A stretch of 64,000 nt of DNA, taken from IMG/VR virus record IMGVR_UViG_3300045988_183245, one strand, 5' to 3'. Shown here one piece after another: positions 9,405 through 47,714 of this stretch (its first letter is position 1; each line of letters starts with the position of its first letter). Origin of the DNA: a virus. The notes below the pieces were generated by a model. That model was not told where the DNA came from and searched no databases. It saw nothing but the letters and a program-made list of their open reading frames with translations. The translations under genes were made by a program, and so were the position numbers.

Positions 9405-11151
9405 TTAGAATCCAATGCTTGCAGGAAGAGAACTTCCAACCGCCTGCAAGCGATGCTTTGTATTTTCGTGCATTTCTAAAAATGCAGGAAAAGCTGAATT
9501 AAGGGTTTCCATATTGTACTGCAAGGATTCGATATCTATATGTTCAAGCAGGAAGGCAGAATATAAGTCACGCTGGACTACTTCTCCGCTGTGGAGACGA
9601 GCCATTCGTTCGGAAAGTCTCTTCTTGGTGTAGCTTTCATCAGTATGGTCAAATTGCGAGGCTTTTGTTTCAAAGGTGCTGACTTTGATAACGCTGCCGC
9701 CATAACGATTGGCTTTTTTGTTCAGGATGGAAATAAACATTGCGGGGGCGCAGCGGCTTAGAGACTTTCCGAACCGTTTTTTCGTATGTGCTCTGCCAGT
9801 TTTAGCGTTGATTTTTGTTTCTTTGCTGCGCTTCTGCAAGGCTTTGTAGTTCATATCTTCAACCACAAACTCGTTACCATATGCCAACAATTCGTTGGCG
9901 AGAATGTTGTGCTCCATTTTGCGAATGTCAGCTAACTTACGGTACAGGTTACGAAGCTTTGCACGCAAACGATAATAACTTTTGCTGTATTTCCACTTGC
10001 GCTTTTGTTTTTGTCCATGCTGTCGCTTCAACCCGCTTCAACCTTTTGATTGTACCATCAGAATTATAGTATTTCGGATTCGTAACGCGGCGTGAGCGGT
10101 CCATTGCACGCTGTGTGCGAGCAATCTCATTAGTGAGTCCTCTTGCTTGCGCTCTTGCTGATGGCGCAAGAACTCTCAAATCGCAGATATCTTTACCACT
10201 AATGGCAAGCGTTTGCGTGCCGATATCAAGACCTATGCGCCCTTGATTGACAGGATGCTTCATCACGCCGTTACCGTCGCACTTTGTGGGAGGATAGCCT
10301 TCTAAGATGAATTGTGCATAATACTTCCACTTGGTCTTAACCCACTTACGAGTAATGCGGCAGTATTTCACTCCACATTTGAGAGCTTCCTGCTGATATT
10401 TTCCTGTCTGAGTTTTAGGATTACGCAACACAACAGGAAATTCATGCTTTCCGTACACAATGCGCAGGTTGCCTTTTCCGATAGTGGGTTTTATTTTTGC
10501 GATAGCGGCAGCAATTTCAGCTTCCATTTGTGGTTTTACCTCATCAGGAAGAACGACTTTCTTATCGTCTTTAGGGTCAGGCCGCCCGTACATATCATCG
10601 TATCGCTTTTCGACGGCTTTTTGCGCCTTGTGCTTAGCCGACTCTATATTGTTTGTAGTGAGGTTTGCCGGGCGAAGCACGATACCGGTGAAGTTGTTTT
10701 TTCCGGAGATAGCTGCTAAATCATCTAACCTTTTGTAGTGAACCTCTTTTCCTTTGCTAAAGAAGAAAGTGCTCCATGCTTTCCAAACATCAGAGGCAAC
10801 TGCCTGTGCTATATGGGAGTTTATGGCATAGTGCTTCGCGTACGGCACAACCAACTTATGAAAAGCATCTTCAGAAAAACGATATTCTTTAAGCATCTTT
10901 TCGCGTTGCTTAAAGAGTGCTTTTTGCTCATCGCTGTCGGGAGTTGCTTTTGCAATAGCTGCCATCAACTCACGATACTTGCGCGTCTTGCGCAATTGAT
11001 GCCACATTTTTGTAGTCGCACTCACGAGCTGATTGTAGATGACACCACACTTCTTGAACTCCTTATACAGATAGTCTTGCTCGTTGAGACTTATATCAAG
11101 AGGCAATGTCAATACAAATGATGGCGTGCTATTCTTGCTCCCGAAAGCCAT
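9405..11151 (-). pseudogene. tnpB: tnpB (OrfB-like, RuvC-fold) disrupted by a 10-bp tandem duplication frameshift
   Basis: The two overlapping ORFs (400 aa and 208 aa) are collinear with the intact 579-aa paralog at 35024-36763. The junction contains cgcttcaacc cgcttcaacc (about 10031-10050), which is a +1 shift. The GIDIGTQT and EDMNYKAL motifs are conserved. Confidence 0.7.
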
Positions 11152-11155
11152 AAAG

Positions 11156-11557
11156 TTACCCTCCTCTCTTTTTTTGCTGTTCTACATAGTGTTGAATCGT
11201 AGCGGTAGACACATCTCCGGCGGTGCTTACAAAATAGCTGCGTGTCCACATTTGCATAACCGTGTCAGGAAAAAACTCTTGCTTGAGTATTCTGCCGGTG
11301 GTTCCTTTAATAATTTTCATGATTTCTGCAGCACTTAATGTAGGCGGAGCATTCGCGAAAAGATGACAATAGTCTATATGACATTCCATTGCCAGTATCA
11401 CAATGTCGTTTTGCTCACAAATTTGAGTTACAAGTTCCTTGAAACGAGCTTCAAACCCATCCACCAGAAATAATTTTCTCCGATAGCGTGGGCAAAACAC
11501 AAAGTGATAATTTATCATAGAAACGGTTGTTTTTGTGCGTCTGTAGTTTCTTTTCAT
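11156..11557 (-). CDS. tnpA: IS200/IS605 TnpA (Y1 HUH transposase)
   Basis: 133 aa with NYHFVFCPRYRRK, the HUH-like motif ECHIDYCHLF, and the C-terminal WTRSYFVSTAG tyrosine motif. Confidence 0.8.
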   Translation of the reverse strand: MKRNYRRTKTTVSMINYHFVFCPRYRRKLFLVDGFEARFKELVTQICEQNDIVILAMECHIDYCHLFANAPPTLSAAEIMKIIKGTTGRILKQEFFPDTVMQMWTRSYFVSTAGDVSTATIQHYVEQQKKRGG

Positions 11558-11665: not shown

Positions 11666-12064
11666 TTGTCGGCCTATCATCCCACGGTTGAAACCGTGGG
11701 CTTTCCCAGCCTTCATTTTGTAAAGACAAAAAGCGTCTTCTCAGAGCAGGCTGACCAAATGCTGTATCAGGTACGGCGCTTCGGGCAAAAAATGGCCGTT
11801 GCCTACAGCATGACCCAGGATAGCAAGACGTCCGGGGAACAAGCCAAGTGCCTAACGTTATTGGAATCCGCAGAACGTATCTTCTATGACCGACTGGATG
11901 ACGCGATTCGCTCGGCTTCAATGTTTGATGAAACGGAATACAAGGCTTTCTGTCTGGTCGGAAGCGGCACGGTCGTCAGCTACCAGTGCCACTCGATGGA
12001 TGAGGCGGTCGATATGGTCGCCGCCTTGTACAATGGCAGAAAAACAGAAGCAGCGCAAGCATAA
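11666..12064 (+). CDS. hypothetical protein (the true start is probably internal, about 11760)
   Basis: The ORF begins inside the IS end hairpin; no motif. Confidence 0.3.
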   Translation: MSAYHPTVETVGFPSLHFVKTKSVFSEQADQMLYQVRRFGQKMAVAYSMTQDSKTSGEQAKCLTLLESAERIFYDRLDDAIRSASMFDETEYKAFCLVGSGTVVSYQCHSMDEAVDMVAALYNGRKTEAAQA

Positions 12065-12154
12065 CCATCCTGCAAAAATATATGCCGTTCATCTTTTTGG
12101 GTGGACGGCTTTTTGTTTTGTGAATACAGCGATTCAGTGGCGAAGCGAGCCGAT

Positions 12155-12210
12155 TTTACCAGCAGTTTGATATTCTGCGGCATGATTTCCAGCCGTTTGA
12201 TACTCTGTGG
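12155..12210 (+). repeat. iteron-like direct repeats TTTACCAG(C/T)A(G/C)TTTGATAYTYTGYGG
   Basis: Two adjacent copies at 12155-12180 and 12187-12210 lie upstream of the helicase-type gene. A third copy is at 18359-18385. Confidence 0.45.
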
Positions 12211-12585
12211 GCAGTTGCACAGCCGTGCAAATTGCATACAATGGGAATTGGAAAACAAAAAGAGCGATGCAAGGCTGTATTTACAAAAAATCCTGTGAGC
12301 GTTTTTTAGTATTCATGAAACGACACGAAATTCAACAAAACGCGAAGAGAATACAAGAAAAGGTGAATGAAATCCGGCTGAGGCGGATAAAACTTGCGCT
12401 GAGTGGTTTGAAGTCCGGACAATGGGACAGCTAAAGTGGTAAAATGAAACTAGGAATACCTAAAATCAGATTTAACCGAAAAAACAAAAACCTTGAATGA
12501 ATAATTGATTGTTAAAAAGTAACCGCTCGCTTTTATACCCAAACCAACAAATGACCCAAATCTGTTTAGGAAGGATAGGCACAAA

Positions 12586-14751
12586 ATGGCAAGAAGGAAA
12601 ACAAACGACTTGGAAAATCAGATGTCGCTCATGGACATGATTGCATCGGAAAGCCCCGAATATACCGAAGAAGGCCCGGAAGAACTCTTGGACCCCGGCG
12701 AGGACATGGGGGACAGTGAAGGGCAGACGGATAAGCCCTTCAAACTCGTGGCGAACAAGACCACGAAGGCAAAGGTGAGCATCTCCACGCAGGCGCTGAA
12801 TGTTGTGAAGGCGGTATATGCTGATACGGTCGAAACGAATTGGGAAGAGTTGTTTGACGGGTTCGACAGACTCTATGCTATCACTTTTTCGTCCGGTATC
12901 GAGTTCGTGAATAAGGTCATCAACAAGTTCTCGTATGCGGAAGTCGTGTTCGGCTGCGAGAAAATCATCGCCAACGACATCGCTGCCATCATGTCGGTGC
13001 AAATCGACAGCGTGCAGCGGCTCGCTAAGTCTAAGTCGGCAGGGAACCTTGCGAACCGCCTCGATGACGGGTCCTTGCAGCTGTATGTATCGCGGGACAC
13101 GAAATCGCACGAGAAAATCTTTATCTTGGAGAGCGCTGACCATAAGCGTGTCCGAGTCATCACCGGCAGTGCGAATATGTCGGCATCGGCGTTTTGCGGC
13201 ATTCAGCGAGAGAATATCGTCTGCTTCGATGACGAGGCGGCATTTTCGCATTACAAGGTTCTGTTCGAGACCTTCAAGGAGACCTGCTCCGACAATGTCT
13301 CCTATAAGGCAGTCGTGAACACCATGAACCAGGAAGATTATCTGAAAGAGAACATCAAAGAAGTGCCCGTCTTTCAGTCTATTGAAAAGCAGAAGCTTGT
13401 CTTTCTGGAACAGGCACAGCCTGAGGATGAGGTCGAATACGAGATAGTTGCCGATGTCAAGAAAATGCAGGAACTCGTCAAGCCAATCATGCCTAAGATG
13501 CCGGTACAGGCGAATCGTATTGTAGTGGCAGCGGAACCGATGCGCGTTTTCGGGAAACGATATACCGAGGTGCGGCGTGTGGCAGCTGAGGCAGTTAAGC
13601 AGCTCCCGAAATTACATATCGACTATGATGCCGGGACCATGACCTTCAACGACGAGAATATCGACCTCAATCCGAATCTCAGCGAGGTGGCAAAGAACAT
13701 CGAGAGCATCCAGAAGTTCTTCTCAGGCATGGACTACTTTTACGGCGATGTCGAACAGGCCAAGAAGGACTACTTCAAGTACATGACCTGGTATCTGGCT
13801 ACCCCGTTCATGGCGTACCTTCGGTATTTTGCGTCAAGGAACAACTACGATACGAAGCTGTTCCCGATGTACGGCGTAATTTACGGTGACTCAAACGGCG
13901 GCAAGACGACCTTTATAAAATTTCTTGTCAAACTCATGTGCGGTGAGACCGTTAAGATGAACACGACGGAGGATTTCACAGCCACAAGAATCGACGGCCT
14001 CAAACGAGTTTGTGAGGGGCTGCCGCTGAACATCGACGACCTCGCCAAGACCCAGTTTCAGAACCATTCAGAACGGGTAATCAAGAACGATGAATGGGGT
14101 ATCTCGGACAGGCTCGTGAACTATCCTGCTGTATCTATCACATCGAATAAAATTACCTCGCTGACAAAAGACCTCTCGAAACGTGCTATCATCTGTCGAA
14201 TTGGTGCTAAAATCGACAACGAGCGCGGTGCCAAGAACTCGAAGCGTGTGAATGAGAGTATGTCGGAGCTGACAACCGCGTTCTATGGCGAATATGTCCG
14301 CCGAATGCTTGTTTGCATCGATGAGATGACGACGGAAATGCGTGAAAATGCGAATGGCAAGGAATACTTCCCGGATATCTTCCACGCTTCGTCTAGTGTC
14401 ATTGCAGATATCTTCGAGGCATGCGGAATCGATTTGCCGGACTATGTGCGTATCCTGTACTATAACGACTATATGGGTGATGAGAGCATTGGTCGTGCTG
14501 CAATTGAGAAAATCAAACTGGCATGGCAGGCTGACCCGAGCAAGTTCCGGGTTGATAAGAAGCAGAACAGGCTCATTTACTCCTATCCGCCGGATGGACC
14601 GTGGTACGAACTGAAATACATTGCAGATGAGCTGCCGAACTCCCTCGAAGCAGAGATTTCTGGCGGCAACCAGCTTATCATGAACTACGAGCAGGCACAG
14701 GAATTGTTCGGCATCAAGTTTCGGCGCTGGCTGGGCATCTTTAACCTCTAA
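12586..14751 (+). CDS. PLD-like (atypical HKD-like motif) domain fused to an SF3 / D5-type helicase NTPase
   Basis: N-terminal HEKIFILESADHKRVRVITGSANMS is an HxK...GSxN PLD-like signature with atypical spacing. The C-terminal half has Walker A YGDSNGGKTTF, Walker B LNIDD and motif C ITSNK, matching D5/P4-alpha-type SF3 helicases. Confidence 0.6.
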   Translation: MARRKTNDLENQMSLMDMIASESPEYTEEGPEELLDPGEDMGDSEGQTDKPFKLVANKTTKAKVSISTQALNVVKAVYADTVETNWEELFDGFDRLYAITFSSGIEFVNKVINKFSYAEVVFGCEKIIANDIAAIMSVQIDSVQRLAKSKSAGNLANRLDDGSLQLYVSRDTKSHEKIFILESADHKRVRVITGSANMSASAFCGIQRENIVCFDDEAAFSHYKVLFETFKETCSDNVSYKAVVNTMNQEDYLKENIKEVPVFQSIEKQKLVFLEQAQPEDEVEYEIVADVKKMQELVKPIMPKMPVQANRIVVAAEPMRVFGKRYTEVRRVAAEAVKQLPKLHIDYDAGTMTFNDENIDLNPNLSEVAKNIESIQKFFSGMDYFYGDVEQAKKDYFKYMTWYLATPFMAYLRYFASRNNYDTKLFPMYGVIYGDSNGGKTTFIKFLVKLMCGETVKMNTTEDFTATRIDGLKRVCEGLPLNIDDLAKTQFQNHSERVIKNDEWGISDRLVNYPAVSITSNKITSLTKDLSKRAIICRIGAKIDNERGAKNSKRVNESMSELTTAFYGEYVRRMLVCIDEMTTEMRENANGKEYFPDIFHASSSVIADIFEACGIDLPDYVRILYYNDYMGDESIGRAAIEKIKLAWQADPSKFRVDKKQNRLIYSYPPDGPWYELKYIADELPNSLEAEISGGNQLIMNYEQAQELFGIKFRRWLGIFNL

Positions 14752-14811
14752 TATGCATGGCAGGTTCTTTTCGGAGCCTGCCTTCTTATTTCGCAAAAAT
14801 AGTTGCCCATT

Positions 14812-14830
14812 TGTGCGAATTGCAGACAAT
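14812..14830 (+). promoter_or_regulatory. representative copy of the recurrent 19-bp promoter-like motif TGTGCGAATTGCAGACAAT
   Basis: At least 13 copies in the window at 6901, 8788, 12222, 14812, 16022, 19156, 22259, 32484, 39664, 43737, 56321, 58944 and 61793. All are on the + strand, intergenic, and 20-150 bp upstream of + strand genes. The 3' end resembles a -10 box ((G/T)A(C/T)AAT). Confidence 0.55.
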
Positions 14831-14913
14831 CAGAAATAAAGCGTAAAGCAAAGGAGCTGAGTACCATCTCAAAATTTGCAAGCAAAAAGTTGATTGAGCG
14901 AAATTGCAATATC

Positions 14914-15357
14914 ATGAAAGACTACGGCAACGGCTATTCCATTGAGGAGCTTGCCGCAAAATACAGGTTGAGCGTCCGTACATGCTATCGAGCGTTAGAC
15001 GACGCGAAACAGGAGGCCAGAATTCAGTTGGCGCAGGTAGAGGATGCTAGAAAGGCCGAAATTCTTGCGGCATACAAGAACAGTGTCCCTCTCAAGGAAA
15101 TGATTGCGAAATTTAACGTGGCAGAAGGATATTGCAGCATGGTTGCCAACGATGCGGGCCTGACTGAAAACCGTAGAAATGAGCGCATCAAAATTCGGCA
15201 AAAACCCCGCAATGAGAATATCTTTCGAGAATACGAGAGTGGCGTGCCGGTGCAGAAACTATCCGAAAAATATCAGCTCTCGGTTCCGGGCATTTACAAA
15301 GTGATTCAAAGAGTCAGAAAGCAGAAGGAGGCGATGGAGTTTTGCAATGGATTGTGA
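14914..15357 (+). CDS. tandem helix-turn-helix repeat protein (three HTH units)
   Basis: Repeats of the pattern Y..G.S..ELA.KY.LS..T.YR. Start reassigned to the ATG at 14914, because the 19-bp promoter motif lies at 14812-14830 inside the longer ORF. Confidence 0.6.
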   Translation: MKDYGNGYSIEELAAKYRLSVRTCYRALDDAKQEARIQLAQVEDARKAEILAAYKNSVPLKEMIAKFNVAEGYCSMVANDAGLTENRRNERIKIRQKPRNENIFREYESGVPVQKLSEKYQLSVPGIYKVIQRVRKQKEAMEFCNGL

Positions 15358-16080: not shown

Positions 16081-16677
16081 ATGAGCTATGAACCCATTAT
16101 CACACCGGGCAGGAATTTCTTTCTTGTCTCGACGGAGTACAAAGAGAGCTGCTCTGCCTGGTGCCGCAAGCAAATTAGAGCGACACTGAGGACCTGTCAG
16201 GGACGAGTCATCATCATTGATGCAACGGGCGAGTACGCGGACTTGGCGCTTGAACATGACAGATTGATTCGAGAAAAAATCCCGTCCATCATTTATCGGT
16301 ATAAGCTGGTGGACGGGAAACCGTATATTGCTCATGTCATTGAAGTTGATACGGAAGCAAATGAAGCACCGCACCTGATTGTATACGATATCAGCCGGAC
16401 CATAATCACCAGCTGGAAGGTCGGCGTGGAGGCAATTGATAAAATCCTGCAATCCTATGCCGTGATGCAGGACAGTGAAATCGCGTGGCTGTATGTTCCG
16501 CTGGACTTATATACCAATGTCAAGCCCGAAAGCGAATCCTGGAACATTTTGGAACGAACCATCAAGGGCAATGAAGGAAAGCTCATGACAGTACTGACGA
16601 CTCGCAAATTCACCATTGGGATGGTCCAGCGCTGTTTGCATATGACAAAAAATAAACTTTTGGAGGATAGCAAATGA
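16081..16677 (+). CDS. hypothetical protein (198 aa)
   Basis: ORF with the promoter motif at 16022-16040 and RBS aggataaacaATG. Confidence 0.5.
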   Translation: MSYEPIITPGRNFFLVSTEYKESCSAWCRKQIRATLRTCQGRVIIIDATGEYADLALEHDRLIREKIPSIIYRYKLVDGKPYIAHVIEVDTEANEAPHLIVYDISRTIITSWKVGVEAIDKILQSYAVMQDSEIAWLYVPLDLYTNVKPESESWNILERTIKGNEGKLMTVLTTRKFTIGMVQRCLHMTKNKLLEDSK

Positions 16678-17561
16678 CCAATGAACAGCTGAGAATCGCA
16701 TTGACAGCGAATGCCGTTACCAAACAGACCCGTAACCATTTTGGGTTCAGTGACCCGTGTGGGAAGACTCTGGAAGAGTACAACAAATCTTCAACGCTTT
16801 GCTGTGTGACGGCAGCGCAGAAAATGAACACGCCGGGTTTCGAGCGTGTCCTTGCTGCACAGATTTTCCCCTGCTTCACCATCGGCTGCTGGAACCAGAC
16901 GAAGACGGTCTATGATTTTGACTACGAGTTCCAGAAAATTCTTATGGATACGGATGACATGGCGATTCATCAGGATATCCTGCAGCGGCTTCCGATTCGT
17001 GATTTCTTTATCCCGGTGTATGACAGCTACGACTACAACGGTATGTTCGTGCATGTGGAATTCGAAGAGAAAGAGAAGACCACTGCTTTCGGCATCGTTC
17101 TTGTCGGCCCGGCCAAAGGCAGCCATGATGATTTCACGTTCCTGACTCTGCCTGCCTGGGCCAAAGAAAACCAGAGTTTGACGGAAGCAACTCGGAGCAC
17201 GAAAGAATACCTGGAAAAGGCAGCCGGGCAGCGGCAGGTAAATGGTATCAGCGTACCGGCTGTGATGGAAGCAGTTCCTTCGGTCTTTGACGGCGGCACA
17301 CCTTATGTTCGCCTGGCAATCCTGTGTGCCTACTATCTTGCCAGTAAGAACCCTGATGTCCGCTTGGAAACTTCCAAAAAGCGTGACCGCCCGGTATTCG
17401 TGTTTCAGGGAAAGGCACAGCGAATCAACGTCAAGACATATACCGTTGGTGAGAATGCGGCCAAAGAATACAAGAAGAACGGGGAAGGCAAAACTCCCCG
17501 CTGGCGGCATTACTGGTGCGACAATGGCCGGGAACGCCGGGAATGCAAGTTTATTTACTGA
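16674..17561 (+). CDS. hypothetical protein, paralog of 57298-58374
   Basis: Shares AYYLASKN...KRDRPVFV...INVKTYTVG...RWRHYWCDNGR with the second copy (AYYLASKN...RTYNVG...HWHHYWVGEGR). Confidence 0.55.
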   Translation: MTNEQLRIALTANAVTKQTRNHFGFSDPCGKTLEEYNKSSTLCCVTAAQKMNTPGFERVLAAQIFPCFTIGCWNQTKTVYDFDYEFQKILMDTDDMAIHQDILQRLPIRDFFIPVYDSYDYNGMFVHVEFEEKEKTTAFGIVLVGPAKGSHDDFTFLTLPAWAKENQSLTEATRSTKEYLEKAAGQRQVNGISVPAVMEAVPSVFDGGTPYVRLAILCAYYLASKNPDVRLETSKKRDRPVFVFQGKAQRINVKTYTVGENAAKEYKKNGEGKTPRWRHYWCDNGRERRECKFIY

Positions 17562-18287: not shown

Positions 18288-18480
18288 AAAAAGTCAGCAG
18301 CCATAAGCAAGAGGCAGGGCCCTGTGTTTCATGGTTCCAGAACGTCTTCCCACCTTAATTTTACCAGTACTTTGATATTTTGTGGCCATTGACAAACGGC
18401 GCAAAAGGTGCTTGGGTTAAAAGCCCTTGCAAAAAGTGCGATATCCATATAATAAAAAATCCAAAAGGGAGATACACATT

Positions 18481-19089
18481 ATGAGTGAACAGAAAGAAAA
18501 TGCTCAGCTCGAAGCTTATCGGAAGCTCGTTGAAGATTTCAAGCACTTTGTCAGCTCTGAGATTCGGACGGAGGAAAACAGTTACCGAATTGTGGACATG
18601 ACTTCCGAAGATGCCGAAATCGATGACCCGAGCGTTCCGGTGACTCAACTGGAGGACGAAAAAGCAGAGAAGCTTGCCGGTATTTGCATGGACCTGTCCA
18701 ATGCCACGCTGTGGCTCTACTACAACCGTGACAAATTTGCAAACGTCGAGTTTATGCCCCTGACTGATGAAACTCTGAAAGAATACCAGAAGCAGGCTCA
18801 GAATACTCTGAATGAACCGAAGAGCCCTCTGTATCTGAAATCCTGGTATCAGCTCATTGAAATGTTGAGTCAGGAATGTATCCCGCAGCGCTACGAGGAC
18901 GACGGTCAGCGATATACAGACGTCTATGTGAACACCTATATGCTCATGTACCTGACCATGACCCGACTCAAGAACGGCGGAACCTTTACACGCCTTGCAA
19001 ACGGGCAGGGAAGCGATGCTGTAAAAATCACGACCATCGCAATGTACTACTTCTCCAGCCTTTTGACGGTTCTCTGCACTGAATATTAA
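18481..19089 (+). CDS. hypothetical protein (about 203 aa)
   Basis: RBS aaaagggag upstream of the internal ATG. The antisense ORF 18361-19191 is rejected. Confidence 0.5.
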   Translation: MSEQKENAQLEAYRKLVEDFKHFVSSEIRTEENSYRIVDMTSEDAEIDDPSVPVTQLEDEKAEKLAGICMDLSNATLWLYYNRDKFANVEFMPLTDETLKEYQKQAQNTLNEPKSPLYLKSWYQLIEMLSQECIPQRYEDDGQRYTDVYVNTYMLMYLTMTRLKNGGTFTRLANGQGSDAVKITTIAMYYFSSLLTVLCTEY

Positions 19090-19515: not shown

Positions 19516-20994
19516 ATGATTACAACAAAGAAGATTGACCCACGGCCATATCAGCAGAAAGCTGCTGCGGCGATTGTCAATAAATATGGGGAAATGCCGA
19601 TTGATACACTCAAGGGCGGTGAAATTGCTCTGTTGCCGGAACCTATCAAGATTCGAAGCATGATAAGCGGCAATATCGGGTTTAAGGCTCGCTTGTTTCG
19701 AGCCATCACGGCATGGGGAAACAAAAAGAATGGCCCTGTCACAAACACTCTTTTGTCCAACAACAAAGCAAACACCGAGTATTTCGGACGTCAGCAGGGC
19801 AACGCCATCCCCATCACAATGCAAGATGAACATAAGATTTACGAAGCGGCTACAGATTTGCTCGGCTCCAAACATCGGTTTCCGGTTCCGGCCACTTCAC
19901 AGTCTCTTTATTCAAAGAATCAAATTATCTGGTCGGATGATATGCCAACAAAGCTGGAAGACGCGGTCATTGACCTATGCTGTTGCCGCAGTGATAAAGC
20001 TAAAACTATCTCTCAGGCAAATGAATCAGGTTCTGAAACCACTATCAGAATCCTTGAAAAAACAAAACTCTATCAGGGACGAATCACGGTTCTTTCGGAC
20101 ATTGAAAAGAACTTAGTCGTCAACGTCTGGAATCTTGATATGAATGATAAGGGATGTTCTGCATCCAGCTTTACGCAGATGACGCTTGGCGAGCTGCTTG
20201 GAAACTTTGCCAAGCATTACACTGACATGGAAATTGACCGAAGCCAGACTTGCCGAGATGCGGATGGAACCAGCCGAGATTTTGCAAGAGCCATCAACAT
20301 CTACAACTCACTTTTCGCCAAAAACAGTGATGGAAGCACGAGTTCTTTCAACAACGCTCTTTGGAAACAACTGAGTATCAGCATTTATTCCGGAACAAAG
20401 TATCCGGAGCAAGTCCTTTCCCTGGCACTGCTTCGGTCCTGCCGTTTGCTTCAGCAAAATAAGAAAGGCAAAGAAAATCGCATCACGGCGTCTTTGGCCG
20501 GTATCACAAAAGCGTTCTTAATTCGCAATTACGGAGAGAATATGACGATGGGACTCAACCCAAACAACACCAGCCCTGCTTATATCACAGGACGAATCTT
20601 CGCACATATGGAAAGTGCGCAGAGAAAGATTGACCCCAACAACCAAACCACTTACGCTAAACGGTTCTTTGAGCGAGTTATGATGAACCCGGCAAAAACC
20701 ATGCCGGAGCTTCACAAGAGTTTCCTTCTTTTGAAGAACAAGGCTAAAGCGAATGGCATGAGAGGTCTTTATAATTCCTGCGACAAGAAAATTATGGCTC
20801 TTATCGATATGCTGGATGGCAACTATCCCGACCATCTATCCGAAAAGCAAAAAGGTGAATATCTCGTCGGATACTATCAGCAGCGAAGCGCAAACATCAA
20901 GGATGCCGAGGAGAAGAAAAACCGGAAAGCCACCAAAATTGAAACTAATAATACGGATACTGCGGCAACCGTTGCAACACAAAAGGAGAAGTAA
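19516..20994 (+). CDS. candidate CRISPR large subunit (Cas8-like), 492 aa; assignment is by position only
   Basis: Sits immediately upstream of cas7, separated by 3 nt, which is the position of cas8 in type I-B/I-C operons. I recognise no diagnostic motif in the sequence. Confidence 0.35.
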   Translation: MITTKKIDPRPYQQKAAAAIVNKYGEMPIDTLKGGEIALLPEPIKIRSMISGNIGFKARLFRAITAWGNKKNGPVTNTLLSNNKANTEYFGRQQGNAIPITMQDEHKIYEAATDLLGSKHRFPVPATSQSLYSKNQIIWSDDMPTKLEDAVIDLCCCRSDKAKTISQANESGSETTIRILEKTKLYQGRITVLSDIEKNLVVNVWNLDMNDKGCSASSFTQMTLGELLGNFAKHYTDMEIDRSQTCRDADGTSRDFARAINIYNSLFAKNSDGSTSSFNNALWKQLSISIYSGTKYPEQVLSLALLRSCRLLQQNKKGKENRITASLAGITKAFLIRNYGENMTMGLNPNNTSPAYITGRIFAHMESAQRKIDPNNQTTYAKRFFERVMMNPAKTMPELHKSFLLLKNKAKANGMRGLYNSCDKKIMALIDMLDGNYPDHLSEKQKGEYLVGYYQQRSANIKDAEEKKNRKATKIETNNTDTAATVATQKEK

Positions 20995-20996
20995 CA

Positions 20997-21959
20997 ATGT
21001 CTGAACTCGTTAAGAATCCTATCACCATTGTTCTAGCGTTTGATGCGCAGAACTGTAATCCCAATGGGGACCCCGACAACGACAACAACCCGCGTCAGTT
21101 TGAGGATGGAATCGGGTACATGTCGTCCGAAAGCATCAAATATAAGATTCGCAGCTACATCCGTGACAAGGTCTTGTTTGACGGTCTGGAAAAGAACAGC
21201 CATGCACTATATTGCAGCCCCGATACTTTTTCCATTGAGCGCAGCGTTAAAGAGTGCCTGGAGCCTATCATCGGCAAAAAAATCAAAGGCATCCCCGATG
21301 ACCAACAGCTGGAGGCTTATAAGGAGCTGTGCCGGTACTACTATGATACTCGCATGTTTGGGCTTGTGAATACGAGTTATTCCAACTGCAGCCTTCTCAG
21401 CCGCATCAAGGGTGCCTGCCAGGTATCTATGCCGATGTCCTATGACCCTATCGAAATCATCCCGATGACGATTACTCGCTGCTGCGTTGCTTCCGATGCT
21501 GAACGCAAAGGCGAAGATAAAGGCGCCAAGAAGGGCGTCAGTATCGACGAAAGCGACGATGGAGTCGAAAAGAAGACGAAAGACCGCATGATAGGCCGTC
21601 GAAGCATTATCAGATATGGGCTGTATCACATGAGCATTCAAATCAACAGTGCAATGGCACAGCGTAACGGTGTTACGATGGATGACGTTAATTTGTTGAT
21701 TGATGCGCTGCAGCATATGTTCGAGGAAGATATGAGCTCCAGCAGAGCCCTAACGCTGCGTAAGTTGATTGTCGTTGAGCACACCAAACCGATGGGAAAT
21801 GCTTATCGGGACACCATTGAGCGGGCACTGGCGGCTCGACTGAAGCAACCTAATGATGCACCTACATCTTATGAGGATTACGAGGTGACTTATCACCGCG
21901 AAATGCTGCCTGATGAGGTCAAGGTGACTGAGTATAATTATAACAGTCAAAGCGTTTGA
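20997..21959 (+). CDS. cas7: Cas7 backbone subunit, Csd2/Csh2/DevR family (type I-B/I-C-like)
   Basis: N-terminal signature IVLAFDAQNCNPNGDPDNDNNPRQFEDGIGY...KYKIRSYIRDKV matches the family pattern FD..N.NPNGDPD..N.PR...G.G......KRKIRNY. Length 320 aa. Confidence 0.7.
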   Translation: MSELVKNPITIVLAFDAQNCNPNGDPDNDNNPRQFEDGIGYMSSESIKYKIRSYIRDKVLFDGLEKNSHALYCSPDTFSIERSVKECLEPIIGKKIKGIPDDQQLEAYKELCRYYYDTRMFGLVNTSYSNCSLLSRIKGACQVSMPMSYDPIEIIPMTITRCCVASDAERKGEDKGAKKGVSIDESDDGVEKKTKDRMIGRRSIIRYGLYHMSIQINSAMAQRNGVTMDDVNLLIDALQHMFEEDMSSSRALTLRKLIVVEHTKPMGNAYRDTIERALAARLKQPNDAPTSYEDYEVTYHREMLPDEVKVTEYNYNSQSV

Positions 21960-22289: not shown

Positions 22290-23695
22290 ATAAAAATTGT
22301 GCCCTGACGGCATCTGAATTGGATGCTGCCGGGGCATTTTGTTTGTTAAGGAGAATTTGGGGCTATTCAACTTTTTCCGGGGGTCTGAATAACTCATGAG
22401 CACAAAAGTCCATAAAGGAGGTGAGCCACTTTGAAAGTACATAAAGGCTATAAATTTCGGCTAGAGCCAACAGAAGAACAGAAAGTCAAAATCAATAAAA
22501 CGCTCGGCTGCTGCCGTTTTGTATATAACTCTATGCTAGATAGGCGTATAAAAGCTTATCAACGGCGCGGTGAAAGTATGAGCTATATTGATACACAAAA
22601 TCTGCTTCCTCAGATGAAAACTTATCTTCCTTGGCTTGCTGAAGTAGATAGTCAAGCACTCAAATATAGCTGTCGTCAGTTAAATAATGCCTATAAAGGC
22701 TTTTTCGAAGACGGTAAAGGGTTCCCCCAATTCAAACGAAAACGGGGAGAAGAAAGCTATACAACTACAAAAGCAAAAAGCATTAAAGTTGACGATAAGT
22801 ACATTCAGCTTCCGACACTTGGGAAGATGCGTTATCGTAAGAGTCGCAACATTGAGGGACGCATCTGTAAGGCAACAATCCGTCGCTCAGCAAGCGGCAA
22901 ATACTATGTAAGTATTCTTTGCGAAGTAGAAGTAATGCCGCTTCCGGTTAAAGATACCGTCATCGGTTTAGATGTTGGCATCAAATCTTTTGCTGTTGAC
23001 AGCAATGGAAAAGAATATCCAAACAATAAATATCTTCAGAAAGCGGAAGCTAAACTAAAGCGTGAGCAGAAAAAGCTGTCACGCAAAAAGAAAGGTTCTG
23101 CCAACTGGGAGAAGCAACGTATCAAGGTAGCTTGCTGCCACGAAAAAGTGACCAATAAGCGAAAAGATGCCCTACACAAGTTGTCATCTACACTGGTGAA
23201 AGAAAACCAAATCATCTGTGTAGAAGACCTCAATGTAAATGGTATGGTTCGCAATCATAACCTTGCTAAAAGTATTTCCGATGTTTCTTGGGGAGAGTTC
23301 TTCCGACAACTTGATTATAAATCCAGTTGGGCAGGAAGAGTAGTTGTAAAAATACCAACCTTCTATCCAAGCAGCCAGACCTGCTCTTGCTGCGGCTACC
23401 AAAACAAAGAGGTAAAAAACCTCAATGTTCGGCATTGGGTCTGTCCGAAATGTAACACATCACACGATAGGGATAAAAATGCAGCAGAAAACATTCTAAA
23501 GAAAGGAATGGACATGCTGGCTACGCCAGCCGCCTCATAACCACAGGCGAACAGTACGGTCAGGACGACCGAATCTTAAAGTCTGTGGAGAGCGAGCCTC
23601 TATCAAGAGCTGCGGCTTGCGGTAAGCTCGCTCTATGAAGCAGAAATCCATACTGAGTAACGGGGCAATCCGTGAAAAGTTGGAAGTCCGAATTT
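22290..23695 (+). mobile_element. IS200/IS605-family tnpB-only element (IS1341-like) inserted between cas7 and the helicase gene
   Basis: An imperfect LE-type hairpin gacggcatc-tgaattg-gatgctgcc lies at about 22300-22335. An intact tnpB follows, then a structured 3' non-coding region (candidate omega-RNA) at 23541-23690. Confidence 0.6.
22431..23540 (+). CDS. tnpB: TnpB (IS605 OrfB family, RuvC-like nuclease with zinc finger)
   Basis: GLDVGIK (RuvC-I), ICVEDLN (RuvC-II), CSCCGY...CPKCN zinc finger, and [10 protein letters not shown] (RuvC-III). Confidence 0.85.
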
Positions 23696-26420
23696 GGCTA
23701 TGACACTGAACAACTTGTCAAGCGAACAACAGAAATTCGTACATTTGGCATTGTCGGGCAAAAACGTATTGTGTGACGCCTGCATCGGCAGCGGAAAAAC
23801 ATCAACTATCAACGTACTCTGCGATGCATATCCGCCGGAACGGCGTATTTTGTACTTGACCTACAACCGATTACTCAAACTTGATGCCAAAGACAAAATC
23901 AAGAATGGCAATGTCCTGGTTCAGAACTATCATGGATTTGCAAGCCTGCTGCTGAACAAAAAGGGAATCCGGAATTGCGGACAAGGCGAACAGCTTGCCA
24001 TGGTATTGGAAAAGAAAATTCCGATTCCGCCGATTGATACTCTTATCATTGACGAGTATCAGGATATCAATGACGAGATTGCAGAACTGCTCAAATATAT
24101 CCGCTCTCAGAATCCCGGTCTACAAATCGTCGCTGTGGGCGATATGAAGCAGAAAATCTACGATGATACAGCGTTGGATGTCTGGACATTCATGCAGGAT
24201 TTCCTCGGCCGCCATGAACAAGTGATTTTCACAAAGTGTTTCCGTATTTCCCATGACTTGGCAGAACGGCTTGGCAATATCTGGGGTAAGACCATCAACG
24301 GCGTAAATAGCTCCTGTATCGTGGAACAGATGTCGGTCGATGAAGTGACAGAGTTCCTGAATAAGCAGAACCCCAAAAATGTCCTTTGCCTGGGTGCTCG
24401 AATTGGAGCCATGACGAAGGTGCTCAACGACTTGGAGAATCGACCGGGGAACCTCTATGACAAGCATCATGTCTATGCAAGTATCGCAGACAATGATGGG
24501 AATAAGGCAGTAGCACCCTCCTCGGATGTTGGTATCTTTACGACTTTTGACGGCAGCAAAGGTATGGAGCGGCCTATCTGCGTTGTGTTTGATTTCACGG
24601 AAGAATACTGGTCGTCTCGCACAAGCAAACCGATGGCACGATATGAGATTCTTCGGAATCTGTTTTGTGTCGCAGCAAGCCGAGGAAAGCAGCGAATCAT
24701 TTTCGTAAACTCAGACCATCCGTTGAGCGATAAATCTCTGATGACCCCAACTGAAACTCTTCGCGGATTTCCGCATCCGTTCGCATTTTCTGAGATGTTT
24801 GACCATAAATTCATCGAGGATGTAGATGCCTGCTATAAGCTGTTGGAAGTCACACCGATTGAACGTAATGATACCACGACCATTGATATCCAGACGGCAG
24901 ATGCAATGATTGATTTGTCTCCCTGCATCAGCATCTACATGCAGGCAGGATTCTTTAATTCCTACGATATAGATGACGTACTTGCGTATTACATGGACCT
25001 GCATAAAGACATGCAGTATTTGAAAATCAAGAAGGGCGCAACGGTCGAGGATAAGGTTCTACTACTCACAGCACTCGAAACGAATCAGTGCAGGTATGTA
25101 AAACAGGTCAAGCCTCCTTTTGTGAACGCAAAAGCCAAAATGTCGCTCAGTATGCGGCTTGGAACCGTGTTCACTCCCGATGAATATGTTCAGGCACGCG
25201 GCGATATCGACATTCATACTAAGGACCATAAAGTGATTTATACCTCGGGCCTTGCGGATGTCGTAAAGAATAATACCGTCTACTGCATCAAGTTCATCAG
25301 CAGCCTGGCACATAAGCATTTTCTGCAGTGTGCGTGTTCCATGATAGCATTGGGGCTGCCATATGGCGTTGTATGGAACGTCAAAAGTAACCTGATGTAC
25401 AGCGTGAAAATCAAGGATATAGACGCTCTGATTGACGCAATTACCAAGTGCATTACGAAACGGGTTTATGATAGCGCAGATGACTACACCTGCAGGAAAG
25501 GTTTTGTACAGGATACTGCGTCGATTATCGACCGATGGACTGACGACGGATATGCGGAAGAGGCCACCACTATCACTTCCGGCGACGGTATTGCCATCAT
25601 CAAGCAAGGAAGCCGCTATTTTGTGATGGACGGAGCACGTCGAAACACCCTGAACGATAATTTTGGGCTTGGTTTTGCCGATGTAAAAGATGCTTGCCTT
25701 GCTTATGCAAAGAGTTGTGAACTCCAGAAAATCGTGGACCATGATTCTCCTTATTCCGAAGTCGAATTCTGGCTCGACCAGAACAAGGCGTTTGAGGAAT
25801 ACATGACGCAGGTAAGCCATGAAATCGAACAGCACAAGGAAGGACCGTATGCAAAATACAAGTCTTTCGCCGCTCCCGCTGTCCGAAAGATGCTGGCTGA
25901 AAAGGGACTGACCATCACGTTCCCGGAAAAAGTCCTCATCAAGGTTTGGAAGATGCGCCGTGTCGAAGATGCCATGTATCAGAAAATCGAAGAAGCAAAG
26001 AAGCAGAACAGCCCCAACGTACCTCTTGATGAGGCGTTCTTTGACTCTGAACTGGTGGATTCCGTTGAGGGAAGCATCGAAAGCGCCAAGGCAAAATCCA
26101 AGCCCAAAAAGGAATCCGCATTACCGTTTTCCAAGTACGGCGCAGATGAGAAGAAGAGCTATCGTGTCGTGAAAAGCGATGAACTCTCAAAGCCCAACCA
26201 GCCCCGTTATGTTGTGGTCGAGGCCGCAACTGATAAGGTCTTGGACAACGCTAACGGATACGGATACCTCTCCTATCAGGCTGCCTGGAAAGGGTATTCG
26301 TACAAGAGCAAGCATCATCTGGATGGGGCAAAGAAGCCTATGAGCAAGAGCGCAAAAGAACGGGCTAAGAAAAAGGCAGCTTTCTTCTCGACCGATTCGG
26401 AACAGCTCAGTTTCGGCTGA
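23694..26420 (+). CDS. UvrD/Rep-like SF1 helicase N-terminal core with a roughly 550-aa C-terminal extension of unknown function
   Basis: Walker A DACIGSGKTST, motif II DEYQDIN, and an N-terminal FVHLA...G.N arrangement typical of UvrD. The C-terminal half is unassigned; GDIDIH...VYCIKF is only a weak nuclease-like pattern. Confidence 0.6.
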   Translation: MAMTLNNLSSEQQKFVHLALSGKNVLCDACIGSGKTSTINVLCDAYPPERRILYLTYNRLLKLDAKDKIKNGNVLVQNYHGFASLLLNKKGIRNCGQGEQLAMVLEKKIPIPPIDTLIIDEYQDINDEIAELLKYIRSQNPGLQIVAVGDMKQKIYDDTALDVWTFMQDFLGRHEQVIFTKCFRISHDLAERLGNIWGKTINGVNSSCIVEQMSVDEVTEFLNKQNPKNVLCLGARIGAMTKVLNDLENRPGNLYDKHHVYASIADNDGNKAVAPSSDVGIFTTFDGSKGMERPICVVFDFTEEYWSSRTSKPMARYEILRNLFCVAASRGKQRIIFVNSDHPLSDKSLMTPTETLRGFPHPFAFSEMFDHKFIEDVDACYKLLEVTPIERNDTTTIDIQTADAMIDLSPCISIYMQAGFFNSYDIDDVLAYYMDLHKDMQYLKIKKGATVEDKVLLLTALETNQCRYVKQVKPPFVNAKAKMSLSMRLGTVFTPDEYVQARGDIDIHTKDHKVIYTSGLADVVKNNTVYCIKFISSLAHKHFLQCACSMIALGLPYGVVWNVKSNLMYSVKIKDIDALIDAITKCITKRVYDSADDYTCRKGFVQDTASIIDRWTDDGYAEEATTITSGDGIAIIKQGSRYFVMDGARRNTLNDNFGLGFADVKDACLAYAKSCELQKIVDHDSPYSEVEFWLDQNKAFEEYMTQVSHEIEQHKEGPYAKYKSFAAPAVRKMLAEKGLTITFPEKVLIKVWKMRRVEDAMYQKIEEAKKQNSPNVPLDEAFFDSELVDSVEGSIESAKAKSKPKKESALPFSKYGADEKKSYRVVKSDELSKPNQPRYVVVEAATDKVLDNANGYGYLSYQAAWKGYSYKSKHHLDGAKKPMSKSAKERAKKKAAFFSTDSEQLSFG

Positions 26421-34869: not shown

Positions 34870-37035
34870 GAAACCCACTGCGTGAGCGGTGGGAGGAATT
34901 GGCGCATGAGTTTTCAAGAATGATGAATGTGTACAATCTGTAAATAAGAAAGCTACTTGATTTCTTTTTGCATCAAAAAATATTATAATACCGATATAAT
35001 CAATCAAAGAAAGGAGGGCTATTATGGCTTTCGGAAACAAGAATAGCACGCCATCGTTTGCGTTGACTCTTTCCATGAAGGTCAGCAAACAGGATGAAAT
35101 TTTTCTTTCAAAAAAGTTTCGCATCGGATGTACGGTTTACAACCAAATGGTTACGAAAACCACAAAAATGTGGCATCAGCTGCGCAAAACACGTGAATAT
35201 AAAAACCTTATAAAAGCCATAAAAGTCGCTCCCGCCAACAGAGATGAACGGAAAGCACTTTTGGTGCAGCGTTCCAATCTGATTAAGCAAGCGGGCTTTT
35301 CTGAGGGTGCGTTCCACAAGTTGGTTGTGCCCTACCAGAAAGCGTACAACGTAAATTGCGATGTCGCTCAAAAAGTTGCGTCCGCCGTCTGGAAAGCGTG
35401 GGATGACTTCTTTTATGGAAAAGGAAAGACCGTACACTATAAAAAGTTGGACGATTTTGTGACCCTTTCCGGAAAGAAAAACAACAGCGGTATATTCTTT
35501 CGCCCGGCAAACCATACGGTGAGTTCGATGGAATCCGCTAAGCGAAAAGCGAAAAACTCTATCGAGAAAAAATACTTCGATGCGTACAGAAAACCCGACG
35601 CTAAAAAAGACGAAGAAGTAGTTCTTCCCGATGAAGTAAAAGCGCAAATGGACAAAGAGGTTGCCGATGCCACGGCGAAAATCAAACCGTATATCGGAGA
35701 AGGTAATCTGCGTATCATTTACGAGAAACACGAATTCCTTGTCAAAGTGCGCAACCCCGATACTCAAACTGGATGGTATCAACAGGAAGCGCTCAAATGC
35801 GGTGTGAAGTATTGCCGGATTGTTCGCTCATGGGTCGGCACCAAATGGAAGTATTACGCTCAACTTGTTTTGGAAGGCTATCCGCCCATCAAATGCGACA
35901 GTAACGGGGTCATAAAACACCCTGTTAAGCAGGGCCGCATTGGTATAGATATCGGCACACAGACTATCACGTTTTGCGGTAAAGATGTTTGCGACCTTCG
36001 TGTACTTGCACCGTCTGCCATAGCGGAAGCTCGCAATGGTCTTACCAAGGAAATCGCTCGCATTATGCGGCAAATGGACCGTTCGCGCCGTGCGATGAAT
36101 CCGCAATACTTTAACAAAAACGGAACCATCAAACGGCTAAAACGCAAGAACGGATATAAGCAAATTCGTCATTGGAACTATAGCAAAAACTATTATCGGC
36201 TGCTGTACAGGCTGCGGAATTTGAACCGCAAGCTTGCTGCCGTACGCAAGGCGGAGCATTATATTCTCGCCAACGAATTGCTGACATACGGCAACGAATT
36301 CGTAGTTGAAGATATGAACTACAAAGCCTTGCAGAAGCGCAGCAAGAAAACGAAAACCAACCCCAAAACCGGTAGAGCGCATTCCAAAAAGCGGTTTGGC
36401 AAATCTATAGGACGCTGCGCTCCAGCTTTGTTTATCACCATTTTGGGGCAAAAAGCAAGTCGTTGCGGAGGCAGTGTTATCAAGGTCAGTACCTTTGAAA
36501 CAAAAGCTTCGCAGTTTGACCATACCGACGATAGTTTTACCAAGAAAAAATTGTCCCAGCGTTTTGCTAAACTTTCTGACGGAACCGTTGTCCAAAGAGA
36601 TTTGTATTCCGCATTCCTTTTATTACATCTTAGGAAGAACCTTCAATCCTATAACAAGAAAACCATTAAAAAAGATTTCCCGCAGTTTAAGATGCTGCAC
36701 GACAAAACAAAAGAACGCTTGCAAAACAGCCACGAGTGGCTGCCTTGTAGCGTTGGCTTCTAAAGCACCTATAATTTAAGGGGGTTCGACGTAGCCCCAT
36801 TGATTGCCTTGAAGTGCCGCTTTCAGTAGCACTTGATAGGTGAAACCCTTGTCAAGGGGATATCTACACTTTTTATGCTGGCTCTTCGGGCATTTTGCCC
36901 TGCCTTTAAGCTTCGCTTTGGGTAGTAAGTACACTGGTCTATCGAAAGATAGTGTATCTGGCAGCTTTACGCTGTTGGAAAACCCTGTAACTGCATTGCG
37001 TCAGCATAGAATCCCACTCCGTGAGGGGTGGGAGT
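34870..37035 (+). mobile_element. IS200/IS605-family tnpB-only element
   Basis: Flanking hairpins cccactgcgtgagcggtggg (34874-34893) and cccactccgtgaggggtggg (37013-37032); the internal tnpB-like gene is intact. Confidence 0.6.
35024..36763 (+). CDS. tnpB: TnpB-like RuvC-fold protein lacking the canonical zinc finger (579 aa)
   Basis: GIDIGTQT (RuvC-I), VEDMNYKAL (RuvC-II), and QRDLYSAFLL in place of DRDvNAAiNI. No CxxC...CxxC. It is the intact paralog of the frameshifted copy at 9405-11151. Confidence 0.65.
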   Translation: MAFGNKNSTPSFALTLSMKVSKQDEIFLSKKFRIGCTVYNQMVTKTTKMWHQLRKTREYKNLIKAIKVAPANRDERKALLVQRSNLIKQAGFSEGAFHKLVVPYQKAYNVNCDVAQKVASAVWKAWDDFFYGKGKTVHYKKLDDFVTLSGKKNNSGIFFRPANHTVSSMESAKRKAKNSIEKKYFDAYRKPDAKKDEEVVLPDEVKAQMDKEVADATAKIKPYIGEGNLRIIYEKHEFLVKVRNPDTQTGWYQQEALKCGVKYCRIVRSWVGTKWKYYAQLVLEGYPPIKCDSNGVIKHPVKQGRIGIDIGTQTITFCGKDVCDLRVLAPSAIAEARNGLTKEIARIMRQMDRSRRAMNPQYFNKNGTIKRLKRKNGYKQIRHWNYSKNYYRLLYRLRNLNRKLAAVRKAEHYILANELLTYGNEFVVEDMNYKALQKRSKKTKTNPKTGRAHSKKRFGKSIGRCAPALFITILGQKASRCGGSVIKVSTFETKASQFDHTDDSFTKKKLSQRFAKLSDGTVVQRDLYSAFLLLHLRKNLQSYNKKTIKKDFPQFKMLHDKTKERLQNSHEWLPCSVGF

Positions 37036-39614: not shown

Positions 39615-39794
39615 TTTGCACAATACTTACCATAAATTACCAGAAAGAAAAACATTGTGCATCTGTGCGAATTGCATATAATACAAAATATAGAACGAAA
39701 GGCATCAAAAAACATCGTTGGTCGGGCAAAATCCGACCGAAAGGCTAGGGCGGGCTCAGTTTTGAACCTGCTCTTTCTTTTTATCGGAGGCTTT

Positions 39795-40830: not shown

Positions 40831-40834
40831 TTGC

Positions 40835-47430: not shown

Positions 47431-47638
47431 TCAAGGTTTTCCTTTCCCCAATCTTGGTCGCATGGCTTCATTTGAGCTGACACAGGTGAAGCGTGAAAAT
47501 CATCCGTTTCATAGTAATATCCTTCCTTTCTTTGGCGCGGGTAACTCCGCGCCAGCCGTCCAAGCAAACAGCCTCCACGCGGCGGACGGTGGGCAACAGA
47601 TGTTTCCGTGTTCCGGGCATCTGGCTAATGTTTGTATT

Positions 47639-47714
47639 TGCTGGTTTAGCTCAGCTGGTAGAGCAACTGACCTGTAATCAGTCGGTCATCGGTTCAAGTC
47701 CGATTTCCAGCTCC
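47639..47714 (+). tRNA. tRNA, anticodon loop CCTGTAA (putative TGT / Thr); atypical
   Basis: Cloverleaf with D-arm gctcagctggtagagc and T-arm atcgg-ttcaagt-ccgat, CCA encoded. There are two U-U mismatches at the base of the acceptor stem, and C33. Confidence 0.5.

Follow-up and report, generated by a model that had tools for sequence, protein, structure and literature searches.

A phage-encoded phospholipase D-type nuclease joined to an SF3-type ATPase, a predicted free-standing relative of the Argonaute partner AgaP

A 721-amino acid (aa) protein encoded by the virus of IMG/VR record IMGVR_UViG_3300045988_183245 joins an N-terminal nuclease of the phospholipase D (PLD) superfamily to a helicase-like ATPase of superfamily 3 (SF3), and this combination raises the question of whether the protein serves replication or the destruction of DNA. 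We analyzed 64,000 nucleotides of this record (the window), in which the open reading frame (ORF), here termed PLD-SF3, occupies 12586..14751 on the plus strand. An earlier note on the sequence had offered two readings of the fusion, an origin-nicking initiator and a defence nuclease-helicase. The second is favoured here by homology to the haloarchaeal nuclease AgaP, by the defence-rich contexts of bacterial homologues and by plasmids that carry a homologue beside a replication gene of their own, and the first is not. We estimate a probability of roughly 0.6 that PLD-SF3 is an ATP-driven PLD nuclease for conflict between genetic elements and a free-standing member of the AgaP family.

Domain architecture of the PLD-SF3 protein

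The domain assignment itself is correct: the protein comprises a single-HKD PLD nuclease and an SF3-type helicase-like ATPase. The nuclease domain spans residues ~70-238 (12793..13299, plus strand) and carries one set of catalytic residues, H175, K177 and G194-S195-x-N197. Two Pfam families match this region above their cut-offs, PF09565 RE_NgoFVII at residues 166-235 (E 3.6e-7, 30.1 bits against a cut-off of 23.8) and PF13091 PLDc_2 at residues 144-229 (27.2 bits against 27). Conservation was counted in an alignment of 66 homologues sharing 25-44% identity with the query, and here K177 and N197 are present in all 66 sequences, H175 and S195 in 65 each and G194 in 59. The HxK...GSxN signature that had been read from the sequence is therefore borne out by both the Pfam matches and the conservation of the motif, and the predicted structure has a PLD fold with structurally equivalent catalytic residues. 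The domain is preceded by a disordered, lineage-specific extension (residues 1-63, 12586..12774, plus strand; pLDDT, the predicted local distance difference test, <50), and homologues align to the query only from about residue 65 onward. A primase in the N-terminal position was also considered; Pfam, NCBIfam and PHROGs gave no AEP, Toprim or PriCT match, and the protein is not a member of the VirE/PriCT primase-helicase family. A search of Protein Data Bank (PDB) sequences with the protein returned no match, and the family profile matched only Walker A and Zucchini fragments among them.

The nuclease domain is followed by an alpha/beta linker and two long helices (residues ~239-425, 13300..13860, plus strand; pLDDT mostly >90), which by analogy with SF3 helicases we infer to be a collar or oligomerization region. 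The ATPase core occupies residues ~426-560 (13861..14265, plus strand) and contains Walker A (G434-x4-G439-K440-T441), Walker B (D484-D485), B' (K500), motif C (T519-S520-N521) and a putative arginine finger, R533. G439, K440, N521 and R533 are each found in all 66 homologues, the residue at D484 is acidic in 63 and that at D485 in all 66, and K500 is nearly invariant. SF3 helicases are marked by a motif C that ends in asparagine and by an arginine shortly after it; in PLD-SF3 the invariant R533 lies 12 residues past T-S-N521. Because the homologues show little or no variation in the residues of either catalytic centre, both centres are under selection to stay active. The core is followed by a C-terminal helical and small beta domain (residues ~561-718, 14266..14739, plus strand), which is modelled with confidence.

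An AlphaFold2 model built on the 66-member alignment (mean pLDDT 88, predicted template modelling score 0.73) was compared with known structures. Foldseek matches in the PDB included AsfvPrimPol, E5 of monkeypox virus (MPXV), B19 NS1 and AAV Rep40, and the top matches in the viral structure library BFVD were DUF927, Toprim and P4-type primase-helicases; the core resembles SF3 helicases structurally more than it does other AAA+ clades. The motifs, their conservation and these structural matches together uphold the SF3 helicase core that had been proposed. For the query itself Pfam gave only sub-threshold matches at Walker A, to AAA_22 and RNA_helicase (E 0.15), and single family members match PPV_E1_C (1.4e-5), DUF927, VapE and DUF5906; the SF3 assignment is thus a structural one, taken from the model, with no above-threshold Pfam SF3 match for the query. 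Pfam found no ResIII, Helicase_C or DEAD match in the query, which has a single P-loop domain. For near-identical database proteins a precomputed Pfam match to PF27394 Aq_aa27 is recorded over the whole product, and a literature search on 'aq_aa27' returned unrelated matches only.

A PLD nuclease combined with an ATP-driven motor is an established restriction design, represented by SauUSI, NgoAVII/CglI R+N and MANTIS MtsD, all of which are defence systems and, like PLD-SF3, have an N-terminal single-HKD PLD domain and a nucleoside triphosphate-driven DNA motor. These enzymes use SF2 helicase-like RecA tandems and act as monomers or dimers, whereas PLD-SF3 has a single SF3/AAA+-type P-loop, and since this P-loop comes with an arginine finger, a ring oligomer is implied. 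Unlike the ATP-dependent PLD restriction nucleases, PLD-SF3 has no SRA- or B3-type target-recognition domain that we could identify. To our knowledge, all characterized motor-driven PLD nucleases are SF2 enzymes (SauUSI, NgoAVII/CglI, MANTIS MtsD and components of DISARM and Mokosh). A machine in which an SF3 ring motor bears PLD domains would differ from these in mechanism, and its obvious geometry would be three nuclease dimers on a hexamer encircling DNA.

In such a machine, the single-HKD domain would pair with a second copy to form one metal-independent active site, the pairing taking place between subunits in a manner modelled on Nuc, BfiI and MtsD. The SF3-type ring ATPase, akin to Cch, SaPI Rep and D5, would load on DNA and translocate, and ATP hydrolysis would couple this translocation to cleavage. 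Fuelled in this way, the nuclease would destroy the DNA of rival elements.

Relationship to AgaP and contexts of bacterial homologues

An indication of function comes from haloarchaea. A tblastn search of plasmids gave three haloarchaeal matches to the C-terminal half of PLD-SF3, and all three adjoin a gene for a Piwi-domain (Argonaute) protein. One of them is part of a 717-aa ORF on Natrinema pellirubrum plasmid pNATPE02 (locus L073:4984-7137), to which hhalign aligned the family profile over 571 columns, from the PLD domain through the C-terminus, with a probability of 99.6% and an E-value of 1e-23; two further haloarchaeal Piwi-adjacent proteins score likewise. This ORF has H105, K107, E112, G119, S120, D122, G157, S158 and N160, and because these residues equal those named by Cheng et al. 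2024 (PMC11442185) we identify it as AgaP. On the evidence of these alignments, the PLD-SF3 protein is a full-length homologue and a free-standing relative of AgaP. RefSeq mis-annotates agaP on pNATPE02, giving only the C-terminal 375 aa (6010-7137) and placing two small minus-strand ORFs over the 5' half of the intact gene. The 'Agap' of PMC11162769 is an unrelated HEPN RNase.

AgaP is the PLD partner of a haloarchaeal Argonaute in the APAP system; by itself it is toxic, its HxK and GSxN mutants are non-toxic, and restriction of plasmids requires the catalytic residues of AgaP and not those of Argonaute (PMC11442185). That paper presents AgaP as a PLD protein and is silent on an ATPase, a Walker motif or a P-loop, and its authors speculate that neighbouring helicases might assist AgaP (PMC11442185). 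In our alignment, the C-terminal half of AgaP contains FGESNGGKGTF, PVVVDD and FISND with a subsequent arginine, which correspond to the Walker A, Walker B and motif C sequences and to the arginine of PLD-SF3, so that AgaP can be reinterpreted as a nuclease with a predicted intact helicase-type ATPase of its own. The PLD domain is N-terminal in both proteins, its H, K and G-S-x-N residues are equivalent, and both genes lie on mobile DNA. They differ in that their identity is only ~20%, and in that HxK and GSxN are ~50 residues apart in AgaP and 16 apart in PLD-SF3 (K177 to G194); in the hhalign alignment the AgaP insertion between the motifs falls opposite a gap in PLD-SF3. The PLD-SF3 gene also differs from agaP in being phage-borne and in standing in a single-gene transcription unit. 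No Piwi match was obtained by Pfam among the scanned window ORFs of at least 400 aa, a scan that left aside two ORFs of a split tnpB and a 443-aa ORF at 51869-53200, which was compared with PHROGs only.

An exhaustive HMMER search, with clustering at 50% identity and E <= 0.001, returned a family of 929 clusters, 284 of them with E < 1e-30, and most full-length members are 650-690 aa long and cover the query from near residue 65 to its end. Searches with single proteins gave only this one phage group in IMG/VR, and in GTDB one metagenome-assembled genome, labelled Clostridiales. Fifty-four viral contigs in IMG/VR, with lengths of up to 346 kb, carry the gene at 91-100% identity, and it is universal within the related phage group, in which 56 loci were compared. 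It is also abundant, because the database clusters that hold the protein have 5005 and 2893 members. A tblastn search of 50,697 deposited phage genomes did not find the gene, and megablast with 20 kb of the window gave tRNA-sized matches only. A 370-aa protein of Thermus oshimai plasmid pTHEOS02 (L003 8016-9128) aligns to the ATPase half of the family only, at 28% identity, and may be a truncated copy since it directly follows a transposase-family gene.

We examined the genomic contexts of 11 distinct bacterial loci, picked by hand, whose homologues are 34-51% identical to the query, and a Piwi gene is absent from all of them. Five of these homologues are cargo of integrative conjugative or mobilizable elements, near relaxase genes (with NikA/MobC) or type IV secretion genes (VirB4, CHAP). 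Their neighbours in these elements are a Vsr-Dcm-NmeDI-GmrSD group (L060), a HaeIII restriction-modification system with a Schlafen/AlbA_2 protein (L062), a complete BREX cluster (L064), a CBASS system with UvrD-PDDEXK and a methylase/ResIII pair resembling type III restriction-modification (L076), and ImmR/ImmA, a UmuC-like polymerase, HIRAN and a WYL protein (L066). Another homologue lies at a prophage end between lysis genes and serine recombinases (L065). On contigs without markers of mobile elements, homologues adjoin type I restriction-modification genes (L069, L074) or a Schlafen-like ATPase (L081). Finally, in 24 contigs (L078-80) a chromosomal islet consisting of a 170-aa gene, the homologue and a WYL gene is inserted between matE and an arginine-biosynthesis operon. 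A WYL-domain gene directly adjoins the homologue in three contexts, and WYL regulators are common companions of defence systems. On the inspected plasmids of Komagataeibacter and Arcobacter the homologue is solitary and lies among toxin-antitoxin modules or beside parAB, and these plasmids encode their own Rep. Such contexts fit a self-contained gene for conflict or defence, and fit a replication initiator poorly.

Several points weigh against the interpretation of PLD-SF3 as a conflict nuclease. The context evidence is guilt by association over the hand-picked loci and not a statistical enrichment. PADLOC (2023) gave as its sole match a weak one to ZacB (E 0.0034) over the PLD domain, and neither NCBIfam nor PHROGs recognized the protein. 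Structurally, the ATPase comes closest to helicases of mobile elements that load themselves and act in replication (Cch, SaPI Rep and the DUF927 primase-helicases), and this, taken alone, would fit a role in replication. Within the family, the experiments cover the Argonaute-linked AgaP alone, and because PLD-SF3 is only ~20% identical to AgaP and has no Argonaute partner, the target selection of AgaP cannot be transferred to it. Lastly, a non-specific nuclease must oblige the phage to shield its own DNA, and no mechanism of self-protection was identified.

Nucleases that combine PLD with a motor are already known as a kind, and AgaP is a studied member of the present family. What appears to be undescribed is the SF3-type motor, its presence in AgaP, the large Argonaute-independent clade and the place of the gene in the core of a large, abundant phage; neither the libraries searched nor the literature on PLD in connection with SF3, defence or WYL gave an account of the PLD-SF3 fusion. 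With its ~930 clusters the family is a plausible uncatalogued single-gene system of defence or conflict. Its members include bacterial proteins that form an Argonaute-independent clade and are encoded in defence islands of gut Firmicutes, and also the product of a core gene in a large phage of very high abundance.

Upstream repeats and the replication question

The most direct alternative is that PLD-SF3 is a replication initiator-helicase, in which the PLD domain would nick the origin through a covalent phosphohistidine, the SF3 ring would unwind it and the repeats upstream of the gene would be binding sites. The architecture lends itself to this proposal. The PLD domain takes the N-terminal place of a primase or origin-binding nuclease, the PLD enzymes BfiI and Tdp1 employ covalent phosphohistidine chemistry, and the family is found almost wholly on mobile elements. 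SCCmec Cch, SaPI Rep and the P4 alpha, D5 and DUF927 proteins share the same motif set with PLD-SF3; these proteins, however, act in replication and have a primase or an origin-binding domain at the N-terminus where PLD-SF3 has a nuclease, and PLD-SF3 has no above-threshold Pfam match to their families. The HUH-SF3 Rep proteins of parvoviruses and CRESS-DNA viruses are similar in that an N-terminal phosphotransferase-type nuclease precedes an SF3 helicase, and differ in having an HUH fold in place of the PLD fold; the genomic context of PLD-SF3 is also without sign of a replication role. The case for an origin, which the anatomy of the upstream region does not sustain, is completed by the conserved direct repeats and, between them and the ATG, by a stretch rich in AT (GC 31-36%).

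The 500-bp intergenic region upstream of the gene had been noted earlier; it is present, and it proves not to be featureless, being composed of a terminator, the repeats, a promoter and a leader of ~340 nucleotides (nt). An intrinsic-terminator-like hairpin with a T-run (12084..12109, plus strand; a stem of 11 pairs, 6 of them GC, with the tail TTTTTGTTTT) closes a truncated ORF at 11666-12064. It is followed by two tandem copies of a motif, CAGNNGTTTGATAYTCTGYGG, with a 30-bp period (12153-12181 and 12183-12211, plus strand), and by a phage promoter, TTGCAC-N7-GTGCAAATTGCATACAAT, made up of a -35 element, a conserved spacer and a -10 element (12215..12242, plus strand). The leader (12243..12585, plus strand) has its AT-rich part at 12400-12600, ~200 bp downstream of the repeats, and a Shine-Dalgarno sequence, AGGAAGGA, stands ~10 nt before the ATG. 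The leader has no unusual RNA structure (fold z-score 0.65), and with no Rfam family matched a structured leader or riboswitch was rejected. Past the gene, a terminator-like hairpin at 14759..14782 (plus strand) begins 8 nt after the stop codon and is followed, from 14803 on, by the next copy of the promoter; PLD-SF3 thus forms a single-gene transcription unit.

The direct repeats and their distant third copy, which had been pointed out before, are real, and belong to one family with a 30-bp period. The motif CAGNNGTTTGATAYTCTGYGG itself starts at 12160, 12190 and 18365 in the window, against 0 expected from 100 shuffles, and it is conserved in ~50 related phage loci with 1-3 tandem copies in each. 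The second tandem copy ends 4 nt before the -35 element at 12215, and the third copy (18358..18386, plus strand) ends 3 nt before a -35 element, TTGACA, at 18389, upstream of a second gene, p220. An iteron origin usually has three or more phased direct repeats, bound by the adjacent initiator and next to an AT-rich unwinding element. The proposal that the repeats are iterons or an origin finds no support in this low copy number, in their abutting the -35 element, in their recurrence in the same register before a distant promoter or in the skew, which has no inflection here: the cumulative GC skew, suggested as a check for an origin, rises monotonically through the site. The PLD-SF3 protein itself might yet bind the repeats. 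Because of their placement before PLD-SF3 and p220, we read the repeats as operator or activator sites for a phage regulator that would co-regulate the two linked genes. Their identity as CRISPR repeats was rejected, and the window has no CRISPR array.

The initiator explanation thus meets repeats in one to three copies that abut the -35 element and recur in register before an unrelated gene, and a monotonic skew. It must also contend with the inspected plasmids, which encode a separate Rep/RepA and, in Arcobacter, a DnaB-like helicase as well, and with the homologue in the islet of two to three genes at the matE/arginine operon, where there is nothing to replicate. Neighbouring genes differ widely among loci, as expected of cargo, and AgaP, which is toxic, acts on plasmids by restricting and not by maintaining them (PMC11442185). 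We therefore consider an initiator role improbable. A broader version, in which PLD-SF3 would be a new class of initiator convergent with the HUH-SF3 Rep proteins, with the repeats as its loading site and the immunity function of AgaP as a derived use, seems to us more improbable again.

The phage neighbourhood

The interpretation as a nuclease for conflict leaves a choice of adversary, and the regulation of the gene bears on it. The promoter-like sequence TTGNNN-N7-GTGCRAATTGCRKACAAT occurs in 8 copies in the window, all on the plus strand, against 0.06 expected (6891, 8778, 12215, 14803, 16014, 19148, 39655 and 43728). Of the copies checked, which are all but that at 43728, those at 8778, 12215, 14803, 16014, 19148 and 39655 lie just upstream of plus-strand ORFs, and because the copy at 6891 falls inside a putative minus-strand ORF, this ORF is doubtful. 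The invariance of the promoter spacer suggests a dedicated regulator or sigma factor. Three Mor/HTH_28-type proteins with repeated helix-turn-helix units are encoded on the plus strand (14803-15357, 39657-40322 and 40820-41788), and may be the proteins that bind the operator and promoter motifs.

The gene p220 (18427..19089, plus strand) has its probable start at M19, at 18481. A p220 homologue is found in 54 of the 56 related loci. In the commoner order (type B, ~35 loci) it directly follows the stop of PLD-SF3 and the CAGNNGTTTGATAYTCTGYGG motif stands only upstream of the pair, and in the order of the window (18 loci) the two genes are set apart by a 3.6-kb block, from a Mor gene to one designated p235, and a separate copy of the motif accompanies p220. 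The protein has no homologue beyond this phage group and no Pfam family. As a co-regulated neighbour it is a candidate partner or self-immunity factor: with the same operator controlling both genes, p220 may restrain or direct the nuclease. Where there is no Argonaute to choose the target, the choice might lie with the C-terminal domain, with p220, with WYL-controlled expression or with self-modification of DNA.

Given a lytic-looking early region, the target may instead be the DNA of the host. PLD-SF3 would then be an offensive nuclease of early host takeover, shredding the chromosome of the host, or plasmids and prophages resident there, to bring about shut-off and recycle nucleotides; its biochemistry would be the same as that of a nuclease directed at rival elements, and what differs is the biological direction, with p220 or DNA modification protecting the phage. 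The promoter class shared with neighbouring plus-strand genes, among them an AcrVA2-like gene and the Mor-type regulators, agrees with this proposal, as do the gene's conservation in every one of the 54 related IMG/VR contigs (91-100% identity) and the clusters of 5005 and 2893 members, which show the behaviour of a core gene and not of sporadic cargo, the toxicity of AgaP alone to cells, and the linked, co-regulated p220 as a possible self-immunity factor. Bacterial homologues, however, accompany host-protective systems, which points to defence in those genomes; the proposal also presupposes that these promoters act early and that the phage is lytic, and the absence of an identified self-protection mechanism counts here as well. 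On balance we regard host takeover as unlikely.

The surroundings of the gene are themselves related to conflict, as seen in the AcrVA2-like gene and in genes for Cas8c and Cas7. The AcrVA2-like gene encodes a 295-aa protein (16674-17561, plus strand) that is 99% identical to a gene annotated as PF26125 AcrVA2-like on a related contig; the Pfam scan gave no match for it. Cas8c and Cas7c are encoded at 19516-21959 (plus strand), and Cas8c lacks its N-terminal third and matches profile positions 184-557. The window has no Cas3, Cas5, Cas6 or CRISPR array. It is conceivable that PLD-SF3 was recruited as a surrogate for Cas3, as the nuclease-motor of this Cas3-less Cas8c-Cas7 module 5 kb downstream, and AgaP demonstrates that the family can serve a guide-directed partner (PMC11442185). 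The cas8c-cas7 pair is present in only 2 of the 56 related loci and PLD-SF3 in all of them, and a partnership with Cascade is for this reason unlikely; besides the missing Cas5, Cas6 and array and the truncated Cas8c, five unrelated genes and separate promoters stand between cas and PLD-SF3. We find the surrogate explanation scarcely credible. The Cas8c-Cas7c pair could be a decoy, an anti-CRISPR or a remnant. Downstream of Cas7c follow a gene for TnpB (22431-23540) and one for a 908-aa UvrD-like helicase (23694-26420).

The window further contains 17 tRNA genes, a tail lysozyme, several TnpB/IS200-IS605 copies and the Mor-type regulators, and the phage, a large and abundant one, probably infects gut Clostridiales. 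The element is unusually rich in IS200/IS605-type genes: TnpB/OrfB_IS605 genes and two matches to the phrog_506 'transposase' lie at 22431-23540, 44035-44913, 35024-36763 and 51869-53200. A further IS200/IS605 element is located at 9405-11557 (minus strand), with tnpA at 11156-11557 and with tnpB as two overlapping ORFs (9405-10031 and 9949-11151), a split that makes a frameshift in tnpB probable. This insertion sequence probably breaks assemblies, because several related contigs end ~960 bp before PLD-SF3, at the insertion. In comparison with related phages there is also a 2.07-kb indel at ~11954 (L006 7302-9369), through which the window has lost a 564-aa ORF together with the 3' end of one of 281 aa and retains the chimeric 132-aa ORF at 11666-12064. 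The tRNA genes form a cluster at 47640-55146 that opens with tRNA-Thr(TGT), and the anticodon loop of the tRNA at 49069-49144 could not be assigned by ARAGORN. A hepatitis delta virus (HDV)-like ribozyme at 47555-47635 (plus strand), whose end lies 5 nt ahead of tRNA-Thr(TGT), matches RF02682 HDV-F-prausnitzii with 50 bits against a gathering threshold of 44.

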